DNA of 64,000 nt from Candidatus Hydrogenedentota bacterium. Lineage in GTDB: Bacteria; Hydrogenedentota; Hydrogenedentia; Hydrogenedentales; JAEUWI01. A program made the position numbers and the translations under genes. Position 1 is the first letter of the stretch. Each line of letters starts with the position of its first letter. The notes beneath the pieces were generated by a model. The model saw only the letters and a program-made list of their open reading frames with translations, did no database searches and had not been told where the DNA came from. Positions 7,244-63,496 of the stretch are shown in pieces. The DNA lies in NCBI GenBank assembly GCA_034669905.1, contig JAXMOL010000002.1, positions 128,001 to 192,000 of the forward strand. Reading direction: 5' to 3'.

Positions 7244-7358
7244 GGTGATGGCGGTTGGGTCCTACTCAACACGACGTTGGCGAACCCGGTCAGGTCCTGA
7301 CGGAAGCAGCCGCAGTCTTCTGTTGTGTGTGCTGTAGGAGTGCCTGACCGTCATCACC
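7244..7358 (+). ncRNA. ffs: Small bacterial SRP RNA (4.5S)
   Basis: Long hairpin with ends GGTGATGGCGGTTGGG/CCTGACCGTCATCACC and domain IV TCAGGTCC-TGAC-GGAAGCAGC (7290-7310); directly upstream of dnaX, a common synteny. Confidence 0.92.
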
Positions 7359-53818: not shown

Positions 53819-56800
53819 TTAATCCCGACGATAGAGGGGATCGGCTCCCAAGGTACCTTGGAGGCTATCCAGGTACGCCGGCGAACTGACCTTTTTCAGT
53901 TCCTCTTTCGCGATCACGAGACGCTTATTCAAGTCCAATTGATGACTGTCATCCAAGAGCGCCGGCTTGGAGAGTGCAGCTTCCAGGTTGTCAATGTGCC
54001 GCTGCCACAGGGCGCAATCACGCTCCTGCTTGGTGCCCAGCCGCTCCTGGTACCAGTCACTGGCGATAAGGTATTCCCGGGTAAAGAGGGCCCGCACTTC
54101 GGGGTCCTGCACGGTCTTCCCGTTGTAGTCGCCATGGGCCATGATGTGCAACAAGGCCGCCAGGGGCGGACAGGCCGCTTTGATACTGCCGTCGTCCAGG
54201 AAGGCCTGGGCACACCGTTGCTGCGCCTCCACGATATTCTTGATACCGTCGACAAAGGCTTCCATGTCCTGCGTTTCCGGACGAAGCATCTCCGTGTTGA
54301 AGACCGATGACGGGCTGTCAAAAACCCGGCCAAAGTAATGCCGTAGAAAGGTCTTCGTCATGCGATAGCCCAGTCGACTGGCGGGAATCAGCTCTCCCTC
54401 GTACTCAAAGTCCTCGAGTTTCTCGAAACACCCTTCCGCGATCAATCGCGCCGGATCCCGCTCCGCGGCAGAGAGACGACACCACACTTCGGGAATCAGC
54501 AGGCTTACATCGTGGTCGACCCGGTACTTCGGCCCGATATAGCCGGCCGCCGTCGTAAATGATTGGTAGCCGGTCAAGATATACGAGACAAGGGCATTGT
54601 TCAGATCACTGGTGGGGGTCAGGCAGTTGAAAGGCCCCTTCGTAAGGGCCCCTTCCGACCCTGCACCGGTCGTCGAAGGCGACTTACCCGTCAAGCTCGC
54701 GATGAAATCCATGAAGAGCTCGGGGAGCTCCAAGTAGTGTATGGGATTGTACACGGCAAGCGGACGTATGCCGGCTTTCCGGTCCTGGGGATTGTTCCGG
54801 CGCCCGGGCAGCACGGCATTGACCGGCTGGATGAGCGGCTTATCCATGGGTACACGCCGGTGCAGGCGGGTGGCCACCTCCCCGAGATAGCGCTCCCGGG
54901 GCTCGACCAGATCAGGGCGCATCTGGAGATAACGGGGATTCTTCGTCGGCACCCCATCGACGATGCGGGGATGGGCCGACGAAACGAAATACGCGCAATT
55001 ACTGTCTGCTGCCACCCGATTGATGAGGCCCTGCATCGGCTCGGTGTAGGCATCGAAGCTGATGATTTCCCGCTTGAAGGCGTGGGCATCTTCCCGGGTA
55101 AGGGGCGCGAAATTGGAGATGAAATTGTTGTCTTCCGATAGATCCCATTCGGTCTGGCGATCATAGCCCCGGTGGATGGCCTCATCAGGACGCTGGAAAA
55201 GGCGCGTTTCACAGTTCTCCAGAATCTTCACACTCTCGTTCTTGTACTGCGGATTCAGGTATTCGAGCTGATTCGTCGGCACCACCACAGACGCCGAGAT
55301 GTCGTCTTCCGTCTGAATCTTTGCCGCCGGCATAAAGTCCTGCCGCAACTTGTAGGTCCGCCAGGAGCCATCGCCCAGAAGGCCTACACGCAGATAGCTC
55401 GCTACCAGCTTACGGCCGTGGAATTTCAGTTCATGACCCGGCTTGCCATTGATGATATCGGCACTGAAATGGCTCTGCCAGTCGTCTCCCCACTCAGGAC
55501 GGTAGAAGCGCTTGATGATAAAGACCATCGCCTTTACATAGTCGGGAATCGTTTGGAGCCAGGCATTGTATTCCGGCACGTACTCTTCTTCCGACACCGT
55601 CAACAGACGAATCACCGAACCCAGCGACCGGTTGCTGGCAAGCAACGGCCGGCCTTTCGACACGATCGATTTGTCGATGAAGCGGTTGCTGTAGTTCCGG
55701 TTCATGATCTCTTCGATCTTCTCGAAGTCCAGCTTGTAATCCGCCACAAAAAACGGTCCGTAGTGAACCGCATCCAGCAGGGACTTGGAAATCTCGGACT
55801 TGCCGCCGCCGGAAACGGTGCACGGCTTGTGACAGAAGGTTCCTTCTACCCCCGTTCCGATGAGACGCCACGAAGGGGCTCCCCGGTGCTTCTCCATGTG
55901 GACCTTGTAGCCATCGGGATTGACGTAGGTGTGGTTGGGCGACAGCAAGATCGACTGCTCCTCCCCGTCCTTCGTCCAACTCACCCGTTGGGCATTGAGG
56001 TCAATGTGCACATTCTCCGGCACATAAATAATGTCCGGATACTGCTTATCGATACCATAGCCCTCTGGCTGGATATCCATGAGCTCGCCATACTTTGAGG
56101 CCATCTCCCCAAAGGTGTGGTCATCTTTGGAATAGCGGGCGTCCATGTGAAACTTGTCGCCCAGATTGAATCGCGCATAGGCCAGCGCACCACCGGCGTG
56201 CTCTTCTTCACAATTGCCATACAAGTTGGCCGCATAGCTGAGCTGGGTCTTTACTTCCTTCTTGCAGTAACCAAAATAGTTATCCGCGATCAGGGTCACG
56301 ACGACGCCGCGCTCATCGCGACACGTAATCTTGAAGGCACCCCCGTCATTGTATAACTCGTCGGCATCCTTCCAGCACATCCCCTCACGACGCTGACGCT
56401 CCGTCGCGTGGTCATAATGGGGCAGACCCAGATCCTTCTTCTTGCACTGGGTCAAATGGGGGGCAAGGATCACGCAGCCCGTGTGGCCGGTCCAGTGTTC
56501 CACATCGAGTGCCGCGTCGTGCTCGGGCAGAGAGGGGTCACCGCCATTGCCAAAAATCGTCTCCACAAAGTCCAGATTACTTACCAGACTCGCCGGCGCA
56601 AAAAAACGGGTCTCCATCGTCTTGGCCGGCGAAATCCCCGGCACCTCCGGGACCACTTTGGGCCGAAGCAAGAGCGATACAACCACGTGGGCCTGCTCTG
56701 CCTGTTCCGACAGAAAGGGTAGTTGGGTATAAGTCTTGGGGGGATTCAATGCGGCGATAGCCAGATTGCCATAGACCTGTCGGGGCACTTCCTTCTTGTC

Positions 56801-57286
56801 CAGGGGAACCGGCAGCCCCCCGTCGGCCACGTGAAAGACCCCTTTCGTCGTGCGGCGGTCACTGGCAGGGTTGTGCAACACCCCCTGCTTGATTCGGTAA
56901 GACTCGATGATGTCATTCTTGAATTCGTGGCCATCCACCGGGAGTGAAAGCTCCCGGGCCAGTCCCGGACGGTCCAGGGTGAGCGTATCGCCCGGAAGCC
57001 GAAGGGTGCCATTCAAGGTCACGTCCGAAAGATAATCGTCCAGAAAGTTCTGGATGCGTGTATCGACCGGGCACAGGTAGTCCGCCAACAGGCGGTTCTT
57101 CGCTTTGTAACTCCGCACGAGGCCGTGGGTCAGACCAAGAAAATTGGAACTTGCCTTGGTGTAGGTCGGAAGTCCCAGTGCAGCCAGTTTCAGGCTGATG
57201 TACCGCACGATATGACGGCGCTCGTAACCGAGGTTTTCTCCGTCTCCGCTTTGGGTCATGTCGGATTCTGAGTGTGGGTTGGACAA
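53819..57286 (-). CDS. PPi-dependent phosphoenolpyruvate carboxykinase (PEP carboxytransphosphorylase)
   Basis: ~1150 aa; QGVLHNPASDRRTTKGVFH, NYFGYCKKEVKTQ, EEHAGGA, HKPCTVSGGGKSEISK, LTGKSPSTTGAGSEGALTK. Start TTG 57286 or ATG 57259. Confidence 0.9.
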   Translation of the reverse strand: MSNPHSESDMTQSGDGENLGYERRHIVRYISLKLAALGLPTYTKASSNFLGLTHGLVRSYKAKNRLLADYLCPVDTRIQNFLDDYLSDVTLNGTLRLPGDTLTLDRPGLARELSLPVDGHEFKNDIIESYRIKQGVLHNPASDRRTTKGVFHVADGGLPVPLDKKEVPRQVYGNLAIAALNPPKTYTQLPFLSEQAEQAHVVVSLLLRPKVVPEVPGISPAKTMETRFFAPASLVSNLDFVETIFGNGGDPSLPEHDAALDVEHWTGHTGCVILAPHLTQCKKKDLGLPHYDHATERQRREGMCWKDADELYNDGGAFKITCRDERGVVVTLIADNYFGYCKKEVKTQLSYAANLYGNCEEEHAGGALAYARFNLGDKFHMDARYSKDDHTFGEMASKYGELMDIQPEGYGIDKQYPDIIYVPENVHIDLNAQRVSWTKDGEEQSILLSPNHTYVNPDGYKVHMEKHRGAPSWRLIGTGVEGTFCHKPCTVSGGGKSEISKSLLDAVHYGPFFVADYKLDFEKIEEIMNRNYSNRFIDKSIVSKGRPLLASNRSLGSVIRLLTVSEEEYVPEYNAWLQTIPDYVKAMVFIIKRFYRPEWGDDWQSHFSADIINGKPGHELKFHGRKLVASYLRVGLLGDGSWRTYKLRQDFMPAAKIQTEDDISASVVVPTNQLEYLNPQYKNESVKILENCETRLFQRPDEAIHRGYDRQTEWDLSEDNNFISNFAPLTREDAHAFKREIISFDAYTEPMQGLINRVAADSNCAYFVSSAHPRIVDGVPTKNPRYLQMRPDLVEPRERYLGEVATRLHRRVPMDKPLIQPVNAVLPGRRNNPQDRKAGIRPLAVYNPIHYLELPELFMDFIASLTGKSPSTTGAGSEGALTKGPFNCLTPTSDLNNALVSYILTGYQSFTTAAGYIGPKYRVDHDVSLLIPEVWCRLSAAERDPARLIAEGCFEKLEDFEYEGELIPASRLGYRMTKTFLRHYFGRVFDSPSSVFNTEMLRPETQDMEAFVDGIKNIVEAQQRCAQAFLDDGSIKAACPPLAALLHIMAHGDYNGKTVQDPEVRALFTREYLIASDWYQERLGTKQERDCALWQRHIDNLEAALSKPALLDDSHQLDLNKRLVIAKEELKKVSSPAYLDSLQGTLGADPLYRRD

Positions 57287-59369: not shown

Positions 59370-60545
59370 CTAGTTGTCGCCGCCCGCATGGGCTCCATGA
59401 AGGGGGGCCGATTTCAAATGGGGCATGGGGTTGACCGCCTTGCCATGACGTCGCATCTCCAGGTGGAGATGCGGTCCGGTTGAGCGGCCCGTTGAGCCGA
59501 CTTCCGCAATAACCTCACCCGCCTGCACCGTATCCCCCACCGAAACCAGGGTCTTTGCCGTGTGGCCATACACCGACTCCAGTCCATCGTCATGACGGAC
59601 CACTACGGTATTGCCGTAGCCCCCCTTCCAGCCACTGAAAGTCACTTCACCCGCACGCAGAGAAGTAATCTCGGTCCCGCGGTTGGCTGCCAAATCGATG
59701 CCCCCGTGAAAAGCCAGGCGCCCCGAAAAAGGGTCTTTGCGCATGCCATATTCGGAACTCAATCGGGCCGTGCCTTTGAGTACGGGATGCCAGGGGCTTT
59801 CCGGCGGCGTGTTCACAACAGGGCTATGCTCCACGTCGATCAAACCACGCACCCGCGACAGGGCATCAGAGGTACCGTTTAAGAGCCGCTGCAGGGCGTT
59901 CGCCCGCTTCATCGCGCCACCCACCGCAAGTTCCTCGGCGAGGGGCTCGACGGCCCCTACCGGCTTCGGCGTCTCCGGCACAACAGGAGTAAGGCGGCGC
60001 GCCACGGGCATGGGCTTGGACGTCGCGGTCAGGTCTTTATCACGGAGCACATCCACTGGTGCCGTGGGCGGGGTGGCCGACGACATGGATGGGGGCGCGG
60101 AAAGGGGGCTTACCGTCAGGTGCTTCGCCATCGGTGTGGGAGGCGCCATGGGCACGGTGGCCATGGGTACGGCGGCCGAAGCCACCCGCCCCTGCAATAC
60201 GGAAAGGTTTAAGTCCTGACCAGGATGGATAAGATCGGCATTCCGCAGCCCATTGGCGGCGGCCGTTTTGCGGACCCCGTCGTACACTTCGCTCGGCGTG
60301 GGGCTTTTTCCGTCACGCTGCAAAAACTCCCGCACGATACGTGTCAGGTTTTCGCCACGCTGAACACGATGGGTCGCGTTGGGTGCCGGGTTGCTGTCGG
60401 GTGTGAGGCTGGCCGCAGTGGGATTTCTAAGAAATTCTTCGCCCGACCATCGCTCCGGGCTCCGTGCCGGCACCCGGGTATAGGTGGCCACACTTTTCGG
60501 GCGAACTGTGTTTTCTACTTCGTGGGGTATCCCATAGACAGGCAT
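59370..60545 (-). CDS. LysM + M23 metallopeptidase
   Basis: HRVQRGENL...NADLIHPGQDL; HGGID, YGH, STGPHLH; GGAGG RBS before ATG 60545. Confidence 0.92.
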   Translation of the reverse strand: MPVYGIPHEVENTVRPKSVATYTRVPARSPERWSGEEFLRNPTAASLTPDSNPAPNATHRVQRGENLTRIVREFLQRDGKSPTPSEVYDGVRKTAAANGLRNADLIHPGQDLNLSVLQGRVASAAVPMATVPMAPPTPMAKHLTVSPLSAPPSMSSATPPTAPVDVLRDKDLTATSKPMPVARRLTPVVPETPKPVGAVEPLAEELAVGGAMKRANALQRLLNGTSDALSRVRGLIDVEHSPVVNTPPESPWHPVLKGTARLSSEYGMRKDPFSGRLAFHGGIDLAANRGTEITSLRAGEVTFSGWKGGYGNTVVVRHDDGLESVYGHTAKTLVSVGDTVQAGEVIAEVGSTGRSTGPHLHLEMRRHGKAVNPMPHLKSAPLHGAHAGGDN

Positions 60546-60588: not shown

Positions 60589-60604
60589 GCAAGATTCGGA
60601 CCAG
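60589..60604 (-). promoter_or_regulatory. sigma54-like promoter of the LysM-M23 gene
   Basis: CTGGTCCGAATCTTGC (GG-N10-GC), 43 nt upstream of the ATG. Confidence 0.55.
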
Positions 60605-60911
60605 AACACGCCAAACCCCCTAACCCATTTATTGGCAGAGAGATAAGAACCCCTTCAAGTGAAAGACAGCGCCCCTCCAACCGGTAGAATCTGCAGGACG
60701 GGGAAAGAATGTCCCCCCACCGCCATCCCGTCGAAGTCACCAGGGATATCCTGCATCCGACCGGTATCAATTGCTTGTCGTTAAAAAGTATTTCGTGGAC
60801 CAAGGGCCCATCTGCCACAAACCCCAACATCGCCTTGCGGCAATGTTGGGGTCCATGACGTTGGGAAGGAAGGAAGATCGTTACTTCTTTCGGGCGTTCC
60901 CGATATATCAT

Positions 60912-61177
60912 AAAAAGAGGAGAGGGTCTCCCCCGAGCAGTGGGGGAGGGAGGAGTGGCTCGGGGGAGACCACGCCGAATGTTGCGGCTTGTGTTAATGG
61001 GAGAGAACCGCTACATGTCAGTTGGTGTGGGGCAATCGGGGGGTACTGACATGCTGGGGAGACATTCGACGCATTGGGAACCTCTTTAATGGTGCGCTTG
61101 TCTTATTCAACTGTCTTATGCATACCAGACGCTCATTTGACCGCCGGTATTCAATTTTTTTCTTTACTGCCTGAACT
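60912..61177 (-). ncRNA. Candidate sigma54-dependent small RNA with C-rich loops
   Basis: Lies between a sigma54 promoter and a 14-bp stem followed by CTCTCCTCTTTTT; contains at least three hairpins with C-rich loops. Confidence 0.55.
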
Positions 61178-61188
61178 GCCTGTATAGA

Positions 61189-61204
61189 GCAATCGCTGTG
61201 CCAA
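61189..61204 (-). promoter_or_regulatory. sigma54 promoter
   Basis: TTGGCACAGCGATTGC on the minus strand, matching the consensus. Confidence 0.8.
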
Positions 61205-61501
61205 GTTTGGCTGATTCGACCTAAGTCCTTTAACTTCAACTGTACCTGCGCTCAACTGCTTCTACCTTATGTATACACAAGGGGCTCAATTCGGTTTCAC
61301 TTACCTGAAAATATCTCAATTGGGGTTTCTGCACCCCAAACCCGAAACCGGGTTTGCCTCGTAAATTGATTCAAATTGAAACGCGACTGTTTCAAGTTGG
61401 TGCAGGGTCGTGCCCGACACGGTGTACTTGAAACCTGACTTCCTCATCGCAAGCTTCACTTCTATAACGATTTAGATACCCTGGACGATGACAAAATTTT
61501 C

Positions 61502-61517
61502 TTGGCATCACTCTTGC
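61502..61517 (+). promoter_or_regulatory. sigma54 promoter of dnaK
   Basis: TTGGCATCACTCTTGC (GG-N10-GC), 80 nt upstream of the ATG. Confidence 0.7.
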
Positions 61518-61597: not shown

Positions 61598-63496
61598 ATG
61601 GCAAGAACCATTGGAATCGACTTAGGAACCACCAACTCCTGTGTCGCCGTGATGGAAAACGGCGAACCCGTTGTCATCGCCAACCCCGAAGGCAACCGCA
61701 CCACCCCCTCCGTGGTCGCGTTCTCAAAGAATGGAGAGCGGCTGGTAGGGGCCTCCGCCCGTCGGCAGGCCGTCACCAACCCCGCCAACACCCTCTCCTC
61801 GGTAAAGCGTCTCATGGGCCTCAGCTATTCCGAGGCCGCCCACGAAATCGAGCGCATGCCTTATGCCGTGAAAGCGGCGAAAAGTGGGGACTGTGAAATC
61901 CAGGCCCAGGGGAAAGGCTACCGCCCCCCGGAAATCTCCGCCATCGTATTGCAGAAACTGAAAGAATCGGCGGAAAGCTTTCTGGGCGAAACCGTGGACA
62001 AAGCCGTCATCACGGTGCCGGCCTATTTCAACGATGCCCAGCGCCAGGCCACCAAGGATGCCGGTAAAATCGCCGGCCTGGAAGTACTCCGCATCATCAA
62101 CGAACCCACGGCCGCCGCCCTCGCCTATGGCCTGGATAAAAAGGGCGACGAAAAAATCGCCGTCTATGACCTCGGCGGCGGTACCTTCGATGTGTCCATC
62201 CTCTCCATCGACGACGCCTCCTTTGAGGTCCTCAGTACCAACGGCGACACCCACCTGGGCGGCGACGACTTCGACCAGGTCATCATTGATTGGCTCGCCG
62301 ATGGCTTCAAAAAAGAATTCAGCGTCGATCTGCGCCAGGACCCCATGGCCCTCCAGCGCCTGAAGGAGGCGGCGGAGAAAGCCAAGTGCGAGCTGTCCTC
62401 CACCACCCAGACCGACATCAATCTGCCCTTTATCACGGCCGATGCCTCCGGGCCCCGTCACCTCAATCAGACCCTGAGCCGGTCGAAATTCGAGCAGTTG
62501 GCTGCCGACCTCCTGGAACGGAGCAAGGCCCCCTGTTACCGCGCCCTGGAAGATGCGGGACTGCGTGCATCGGACATCGACGAGGTCATTCTCGTGGGTG
62601 GTATGACACGCATGCCGGCCGTCGCGGAATTGGTCACCAAGCTGTTCAACACCGAACCCCACCGGGGCGTGAACCCCGATGAGGTCGTCGCCCTCGGTGC
62701 GGCCATCCAGGCAGGTGTCTTGTCGGGCGAAGTGAACGACGTCCTGCTCCTCGACGTGACGCCCCTCTCCCTGGGTATCGAAACCCTCGGCGGGGTGTGC
62801 ACCAAACTCGTGGAGCGCAACACGACCATTCCGGTGTCGAAGAAGGAGATTTTCTCCACCGCTGCCGACAACCAATCGTCGGTTACGGTTCATGTGCTCC
62901 AGGGTGAACGCGAACTGTCGAAGGACAACCGCACCCTGGGACGCTTCAACCTCGAGGGCATTGCACCGGCTCCCCGGGGCATCCCCCAGATTGAAGTCGC
63001 CTTCGACATCGACGCCGATGGCATCGTCCACGTTTCAGCCAAAGACCTGGCCACCGGCAAGGCCCAGAAGATTCGTATCGAGGCTTCCTCGGGATTGTCC
63101 GAAGACGAGATCAACGAACGGGTCCGTGAAGCCGAGGCCCATGCCAAAGAAGACGCCGAGCGTCGGCACCAGGTTGAATTGAAAAACCAGGCCGACCACC
63201 TGCTCTACACCACAGAAAAAACCCTGGCGGAACAGGGTGATGAAATTCCGGAAACCATGCAGCAAAACGTGAAGGAGAAACTTATGGCCTTGAAAGAATC
63301 CCTGAACACGGAAAACGGATTGACCATCGAAGCCGCCATCAAGGCACTGAATGGTGCCCTGCAGGAAATGGGCACCCAGGCCTATGCCAAGGCCCCCGGT
63401 CAACCACCGCAAGACGGGCCGGAGACGCCCTATGCCACGGCAACGGTGAAGGATGACGACAGCGTGGATGCCGATTACACGGTCATCAACAACTAA
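61598..63496 (+). CDS. dnaK: Chaperone DnaK (Hsp70)
   Basis: [50 protein letters not shown]. Confidence 0.98.

Follow-up and report, generated by a model that had tools for sequence, protein, structure and literature searches.

A predicted sigma54-dependent RNA gene of one Candidatus Hydrogenedentota genus, with C-rich loops on a multibranch fold

A 64,000-nucleotide stretch of DNA from a Candidatus Hydrogenedentota bacterium (genome G000; "the window" is this whole stretch, and coordinates refer to it unless a contig is named) very probably contains a real, transcribed RNA gene on its minus strand. On the comparisons made here, it is an undescribed sigma54 gene that is restricted to one genus, and it presents its seven to eight C-rich patches on a closed multibranch fold, which is unusual. 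The predicted primary transcript (60816..61177, minus strand, ~362 nt) runs from the promoter to a terminal hairpin and is non-coding: its longest internal ORF on the same strand is 32 amino acids. At the level of sequence and comparison, the gene, its orientation, its promoter, the stems of hairpins 1 and 3, and its complementarity to Shine-Dalgarno (SD) sequences are established. The original prediction was of a structured RNA that is transcribed on its own from a sigma54 promoter on the minus strand and exposes C-rich loops, and this core of it stands: the promoter, hairpins, and loops were all found where they had been placed, and promoter, stems, and loops are conserved.

The gene is kept in all nine genomes of the genus (BLAST and covariance model). 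BLAST found the element in 8/8 same-genus genomes and in 0/32 others. The covariance model had matches in 9 of 135 genomes of the phylum, all nine within the genus; in the 126 phylum genomes outside it, which were searched with strict filters and 20 candidates scored per genome, it found no homolog. A family-level covariance search gave a single chance-level match outside the genus (E = 7.7), the model did not find the RNA at 26 loci with an ortholog of the nearby M23 peptidase gene, and a pattern search found no copy on viral contigs. The restriction to one genus thus refers to the genomes searched, and diverged homologs may have been missed. Close copies are present on two metagenome contigs. 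The element is single-copy in G000, and in G002 the gene is truncated by the end of its contig. Identity of the homologs to G000 is 85–99% in the core, 64–84% in the 5′ part, and 46–82% in the 3′ part. That the region is more than a chance arrangement is supported by its conservation (8/8) and by its folding energy: the minus strand of 60900–61180 folds with z = −4.28, and none of 200 shuffles was equally stable. The z-score of the plus strand of the same region is −0.24.

The sigma54 (−24/−12) promoter (61189..61204, minus strand) reads TTGGCACAG-N3-TTGC, which is invariant in 8/8 homologs, and predicts a transcription start near 61177. About 120 nt upstream of the −24 box lies a candidate enhancer (UAS; 61293..61325) with a palindromic CAATTG core and a TGAAAC. 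This pattern occurs exactly once, at the RNA locus, in 8 genomes and in 0/127 others (reversed control, 0), and the site would act as the enhancer for a sigma54 activator. A second candidate enhancer site is a conserved near-palindrome (61368..61381) whose TTGAA.C half is invariant in 8/8. Farther upstream, a conserved motif pair (GTCA ... AATCGTTA; 61465..61492, minus strand) could be aligned in 7/8 homologs despite different upstream genes and is a possible regulator site. Between enhancer and promoter, AAAGGACTTA(G) (61221..61231, minus strand), which we take to be an IHF-like site, is invariant in 8/8 and also lies beside other sigma54 sites of the genome.

The genome encodes RpoN and 25 sigma54 activators. 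Among its 33 intergenic consensus sigma54 sites, that of the RNA is the farthest from the next same-strand gene (659 nt, measured on our own gene calls). An NtrC-type activator gene lies directly upstream of the RNA only in G005 (1/9 genomes); because it is adjacent in this genome only, we do not assign it as the activator of the RNA. In G000, the kinase and NtrC-type activator pair is on contig C64 (20506–23206; loci L115–L144). Orthologs of the activator are present in 102/135 phylum genomes with highly variable downstream DNA, and no sigma54 site follows the gene among the listed loci of other genera.

The genes around the RNA are not constant. Across the 8 homologs, the upstream neighbor is dnaK three times, an unrelated gene three times, msrA once, and the kinase/NtrC-type pair once; downstream, four have the M23 gene and the other four have genes on the opposite strand. 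Because the promoter and the upstream enhancer-like motifs are kept while the neighboring genes change, the RNA is, by the evidence of synteny, a stand-alone, independent non-coding gene with a sigma54 promoter. In G000 its upstream neighbor is a divergent dnaK paralog (61601..63496, plus strand; a neighbor in 3/8), the second in the genome and 68% identical to the copy on contig C6. This dnaK has its own sigma54 site (61502–61517, plus strand), which is kept in the three genomes with the divergent arrangement. As it diverges from the RNA with a sigma54 site of its own, dnaK may share with the RNA the enhancer-like sites that lie between them. In RNA run X1 (share 0.09), reads fell over dnaK only and were mostly from other organisms. 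Farther along the window, a 1155-amino-acid ORF (53819–57286, minus strand) has no Pfam match and is 91% conserved in a relative; we take it to resemble a PPi-dependent PEP carboxykinase.

On the other side of the RNA lies a gene for a LysM/M23 peptidase (59370..60545, minus strand; Pfam M23), which is a neighbor and not part of the RNA. It has an ortholog in 78/135 phylum genomes. As it is on the same strand and downstream in 4/8 homologs, the RNA could be a cis element (a leader or attenuator of the LysM/M23 gene), or else a dual-function mRNA for a short peptide. We consider this reading quite improbable. In 4/8 homologs the RNA is followed by an unrelated gene on the opposite strand, and the M23 gene has a sigma54-type promoter of its own (a non-consensus sigma54-like site at 60589–60604, minus strand). 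In many other genera the M23 orthologs (L079–L098) have their own consensus sigma54 promoters and short G-rich leaders, and these orthologs lack this RNA. As for a peptide, the 18-codon ORF that had been pointed out inside the transcript (61018..61074, minus strand) is indeed there, and its SD sequence, its spacing, and its first 7 codons are kept in 8/8. Beyond these codons it is frameshifted, and it encodes 18, 20, 59, 27, 54, 54, 54, and 54 amino acids in the 8 genomes. Because frame and length change among relatives, we judge it to be incidental rather than a conserved peptide. Its ribosome binding site and start are in or at conserved stems, and not even the wobble positions of the first codons vary, which is what a constraint on the RNA predicts. 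Overall, synteny and frameshifts largely refute the cis or peptide reading. The dual-function type of RNAIII/hld was also rejected as a class for this RNA, as there is no conserved small ORF (18–59 amino acids in different frames).

The three consecutive hairpins of the original prediction are all present, but they are not a simple series: two long-range stems enclose them in a multibranch domain. Near the 5′ end, a hairpin that had been placed at ~61115–61152 is predicted in G000 at 61120..61152 (minus strand, as are all parts of the RNA); it is variable, with shorter forms in most homologs. It is followed by a conserved 5′ motif (GUAUGCAU..ACA(G/A)UUGAAUA; 61104..61125) with mostly invariant columns. 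The core is closed by a 7-bp root stem. Its 5′ arm, AAAGAGG (61081..61087), is also the apparent ribosome binding site of the small ORF; it is predicted to be paired, and 7/7 of its pairs with the 3′ arm (60914..60920) are kept and none vary. Within the root stem, an 11-bp long-range stem (61062..61072 with 60972..60982) encloses hairpins 1 and 2, and this arm and hairpin 3 branch from the root, so that the consensus structure has two branch points. All 11 pairs of the 11-bp stem are kept, including two invariant G-U pairs, and one pair changes from U-A to U-G. Hairpin 1 (61014..61053) has a 9-bp stem, in which 4/8 pairs change on both sides, and a 22-nt loop with an invariant 19-nt core that holds two C-runs. 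Hairpin 2 (60984..61011) has a 6-bp stem, of which only 4 bp, all invariant, are kept in relatives, and a 16-nt loop in which UUCUCUCCCA is conserved. Hairpin 3 (60925..60971) has a 14-bp stem, with 2/14 pairs changing on both sides, and a 19-nt loop with an invariant CACUCCUCCCUCCCC. Two C-rich single strands lie between the stems: L0 (UUCCCAA, 61074..61080), which is invariant with unpaired probabilities of 0.58–0.99, and L1 at the junction (CUCCCCA, 61055..61061), which is invariant and unpaired at 0.98–1.00. The two long-range stems and two single strands, together with the tail patch, terminal hairpin, and upstream motifs, are additions to the first reading of this region.

Each of the 44 pairs is a standard pair in every one of the 8 sequences (352/352 cells), and 6/44 pairs change on both sides, four of them in hairpin 1 and two in hairpin 3. 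The covariation score is 0.157, against 0.083 for shuffled alignments (reached in 0/500) and at most 0.026 when the structure is slid. The count of covarying pairs alone does not exceed the shuffles (70/500), and the 8 sequences are close kin. So, a check by BLAST and covariation in relatives finds promoter, stems, and loops kept and two stems covarying, and stems 1 and 3 vary around loops that do not. Because the root and 11-bp stems are both invariant, covariation does not test them; for these and for the stem of hairpin 2, all almost invariant, the support is folding energy only, and we treat them as predicted. A structural switch, in which the G-rich arm of hairpin 3 would pair with L1, is unlikely, as the alternative fold costs 17 kcal/mol.

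Could the functional strand be the other one, or the element be DNA-level or untranscribed? A plus-strand transcript would be GGA-rich and might bind CsrA, which the genome encodes, and GGA occurs 8 times in the core on that strand. We regard this as highly improbable. Only 1 of the 8 plus-strand GGA is in an ANGGA context, the conserved promoter and terminator both face minus, and the core folds better on the minus strand in 10/10 sequences (z = −6.8 to −9.2 vs. −2.4 to −4.5 for plus). G-U pairs in the stems fit the minus strand only. Thus the plus-strand, CsrB-like transcript that had been named as the refuting case is disfavored by fold, base pairs, and signals alike. Also, csrA (contig C20, 7752–8430 with its neighbor) adjoins a gene that we take to be FliW-like, which suggests protein-based control of CsrA. 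The CsrB/RsmZ class, with multiple ANGGA in loops, was rejected with 1 ANGGA on the strand(s) examined.

The part of the original prediction that fails is the 3′ end at 60912. The linker and root stem 3′ arm (CUCUCCUCUUUUU, 60912..60924) are probably not a terminator: CCUCUUU, which had been taken as a terminator tail, pairs with AAAGAGG in the root stem, its U-run has 3–4 U in 4/8 relatives, and a conserved hairpin follows ~55 nt later. A terminator scan found only weak alternative stems near 60912; it also did not pick up the hairpin farther downstream, which in G000 has a short U tail. In every homolog, a variable spacer is followed by a C/U-rich patch (CUUCCUUCCC; 60863..60876, kept in 8/8, partly unpaired at 0.42–0.80) and then by a strong hairpin, mostly with a U-rich tail. 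In G000 this hairpin is at 60816..60857 and occurs nowhere else in the genome; its U tail is short here and in G007. A strong hairpin is at this place in 11/11 loci folded, and the hairpin sequences are unrelated. Because of this arrangement, the hairpin near 60816 is likely to be the intrinsic terminator, which would make the transcript ~360 nt rather than 265.

The core of each homolog has seven unpaired C-runs, mostly in a U-CCC(C)-A context (44/63 have A next). (A genome-wide count of unpaired C-runs, with 900 of 2879 windows folded, was dominated by simple repeats.) The loops had been described as anti-SD, and to examine this we used the 795 of 5340 called genes that have one possible start, so that SD strength could not choose the start. 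At −20..−11, the six-nt complement of loop 3, the strongest anti-SD patch, is found in 108/795 genes (vs. 1–10 in upstream bins), that of the tail patch (AAGGAAG-type sites) in 88/795 (vs. 3–13), that of loop 2 (GGGAGA-type sites) in 42/795 (vs. 3–10), and that of L1, which is weakly enriched, in 19/795; over all four patches the upstream bins hold 0–13. At least one of these four patches has a six-nt complement at −20..−3 in 239/795 genes (vs. 23–35 in control windows). The anti-SD description therefore fits loops 2 and 3 and extends to L1 and the tail patch. It does not fit the invariant 19-nt loop 1, whose complement is not enriched at the SD position (15/795 vs. 22–36), or L0, which is not SD-complementary (1/795 vs. 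1–7); together these two reach 21/795 (vs. 27–43 in controls). The 3′ end of the host 16S rRNA was not found in the assembly. SD complementarity is a capacity to pair, not a function, and would follow from any sequence that contains CUCC.

None of the RNA families that we compared accounts for this gene. As had been suspected, it belongs to no named family: the Rfam 15 scan of the window, at gathering thresholds, matched only the SRP RNA and nothing at the RNA, and E-value mode on 60700–61400 gave two chance matches (E = 0.61 and 7.9). (The SRP RNA at 7253–7352, plus strand, and a 6S RNA on contig C19 at 97014–97202, minus strand, are above the Rfam thresholds.) 6S RNA itself was rejected, as the fold is branched and not a rod, and the genome's own 6S is elsewhere, on C19. 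A literature search on the phylum and sRNA or ncRNA, mostly among papers outside subscription and with supplementary motif tables outside its scope, found no relevant paper.

The closest likenesses are to RNAs whose C-rich loops act without Hfq, namely sX13 (PMC3771888), 6C (PMC6486639), NfeR1 (PMC10746234), and RsaE (PMC2790875); here and below, these sources are cited for the parts of their text available to us. Like these, the RNA has conserved unpaired C-rich motifs on stable stems and a stand-alone gene, and complementarity to ribosome binding sites was found for 4/6 segments tested (not loop 1 or L0). sX13 of Xanthomonas has three stems with C-rich apical loops, is Hfq-independent, and recognizes G-rich motifs near start codons at non-conserved positions (PMC3771888, as far as available). 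Our RNA shares its C-rich loops on stems and a host in which Hfq was not found, but in place of three serial hairpins with 4C/5C loops it has ~360 nt, a closed multibranch core, 7–8 unlike patches, and a sigma54 promoter, and there is no Rfam or sequence match to sX13. 6C of Actinobacteria, whose host is GC-rich, also has C-rich loops, and these bind G-rich leaders with no chaperone; in the accessible description it is a small RNA with conserved C-runs, and architecture, size, host, and promoter differ (PMC6486639). RsaE (PMC2790875, in part) and RNAIII likewise have several unpaired UCCC motifs, and RNAIII is also long with several C-rich loops; they differ from our RNA in phylum and promoter type, and here there is no Rfam match and no conserved peptide. 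An anti-SD loop is shared with cuckoo (PMC4615179) and NfeR1 (PMC10746234): loop 3 has CUCCUCCC, 8/9 letters of the cuckoo motif in the text available. In that text, the alphaproteobacterial cuckoo/alpha-r14 RNAs have the same CCUCCUCCC in each of 2–4 adjacent hairpins and no multiloop, and NfeR1 is described as Hfq-independent with a promoter that lacks a sigma54 signature. We rejected membership in cuckoo/alpha-r14, as CCUCCUCCC is not in every loop (loops 1 and 2 differ) and there are two branch points.

Among sigma54-driven RNAs, Pxr of Myxococcus has an upstream enhancer, an essential loop cytosine, and a host without Hfq (PMC5568312, PMC5684412, in the parts available), and its targets are stated to be unknown in the accessible text of PMC11928866. 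Our RNA resembles Pxr in its sigma54 promoter with a candidate upstream enhancer region, in its stem-loops, and in a host where Hfq was not found; the NtrC-type gene directly upstream recalls pxrR-pxr, in 1/9 genomes only. In contrast to Pxr, which the same sources give as 108 nt with three serial stems and a fixed activator linkage, it is ~360 nt and the linkage is not conserved. So, promoter and enhancer agree with Pxr, and we rejected membership on the activator adjacency (1/9), the lack of a match to the Pxr model, and the length. CJnc230 is an RpoN-dependent anti-SD sRNA and, unlike our RNA, a processed RNA of 98 nt (PMC11187230, as far as available).

We propose, with about an even chance of being right, that the RNA is a Hfq-independent, multi-seed repressor that works like sX13, 6C, NfeR1, or RsaE and is a member of none of them. 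We favor this because RNAs built in this way, with exposed, invariant C-rich loops carried by covarying stems, have been shown by experiment to act as such repressors. A signal would activate one of the 25 sigma54 activators, which would bind the conserved upstream sites and fire the promoter. The RNA would then fold, with stems that protect it and present the patches. Loops 2 and 3, L1, and the tail would form 5–8 mostly G-C pairs with GGGAG-, GGAGG-, and AAGGAAG-type SD variants, and loop 1 and L0 would give second contacts on nearby G-runs. This pairing would block 30S loading, so that many mRNAs would be repressed without Hfq. (Hfq and ProQ were not found in the 95.7%-complete genome, which does encode CsrA, a 78-amino-acid KhpA-type protein, and one RRM protein.) An sRNA that blocks ribosome binding sites had been predicted originally; the complementarity of four patches agrees with this, but our searches yielded no conserved target, and the blocking is something that we infer.

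The best loop-1 duplex was at the ribosome binding site of ilvE, with −30 kcal/mol in G000; the nearest relative has −22, and the remaining seven have −13 to −17. We rejected this target because the energies in the relatives are like those of six genomes of the family that lack the RNA. (Across the family, ilvE leaders have a GTRYGCAT-like palindromic motif ~75 nt before the start [L028–L042; contig C18, 89861–89869], and this 8-mer is also invariant in the 5′ part of the RNA and occurs within a dispersed REP-like repeat of the genome.) A 14-letter complement of loop 1 is no commoner in the nine genomes than its reversed control, with 19 sites outside the RNA against 16. In five relatives, 60 long complements of loops 2 and 3 precede an ATG; among the 58 of these that were examined, no two relatives have one at the same ortholog, and two such complements are common only to G000 and its closest relative. 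Flagellar and pilin genes did not rank high for any loop. (Four near-identical type IV pilin genes are each behind a sigma54 promoter [C2:213594–214025, C16:126226–126657, C55:32552–32983, and C6:189228–189659]; ACAGTTGAA is near +1 of three of the four and is also found upstream of and inside the RNA gene.) The searches used long contiguous seeds, by which short seeds are not resolvable, and the negative results could be explained by targets like those of sX13, in which the position and flanks of the G-motif vary.

A second possibility, which we entertain tentatively, is that the RNA is a decoy: its 7–8 copies of U-CCC(C)-A on a scaffold would titrate a protein that binds C-rich RNA (KH, RRM, a nuclease, or Rho), and the mRNA targets of this protein would be released once the sigma54 signal fires. 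The common context of the seven unpaired C-runs in every homolog fits this, as do the invariant stems, which suggest sequence-specific recognition, the lack of a conserved pairing target, and the presence of KhpA-type and RRM proteins. Also, there is no preference for U before the G-runs of start regions (363/1551), which fits a protein motif no worse than it fits pairing. On the other hand, CsrB-type decoys typically conserve only a short motif, and here the invariant loop sequences are long and differ from one another. The SD variants of the genome are matched by four patches, and a literature search found no bacterial C-rich sRNA that is a sponge of KH proteins. It is rather doubtful that the RNA represents a new type of CsrB-like decoy (for KH, RRM, or Rho) and that an unrecognized system of protein titration underlies it and the other sigma54-driven C-rich RNAs of phyla without Hfq, Pxr included.

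Third, the RNA might act on a narrow target or as an RNA sponge, touching a few G-rich RNAs (an sRNA, or a coding or leader site) by short discontinuous contacts with loop 1 as the specificity element. Loop 1 is invariant over 19 nt yet not SD-like, multi-loop kissing contacts are described for RNAIII (in the available part of PMC3771888), and discontinuous sites would escape searches with contiguous patterns. This seems unlikely, however. In the nine genomes, there are 35 non-self sites with at least 16/19 matches to the complement of loop 1 (vs. 19 for the control). Among the 14 of these 35 that were inspected, none is at a start codon, and the sole recurring one is in-frame within homologous coding sequences in 3 genomes.

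Only one genus, of uncultured bacteria, has the RNA, and sRNAs with C-rich loops are already an established class, to which, by its inferred working mode, it would add a new family. Our searches found no sRNA literature on this phylum, in which the RNA is a new structured family. As its boundaries, promoter, and exposed motifs are well defined, the RNA is testable in a surrogate host. If it pairs with mRNAs as we propose, its four patches match the SD region of ~30% of genes (over 6 nt), and the question becomes where specificity comes from, or whether the RNA is a broad brake on translation. If it is instead a protein decoy, this would account for the difficulty of finding targets for Pxr and other sigma54-driven C-rich RNAs.
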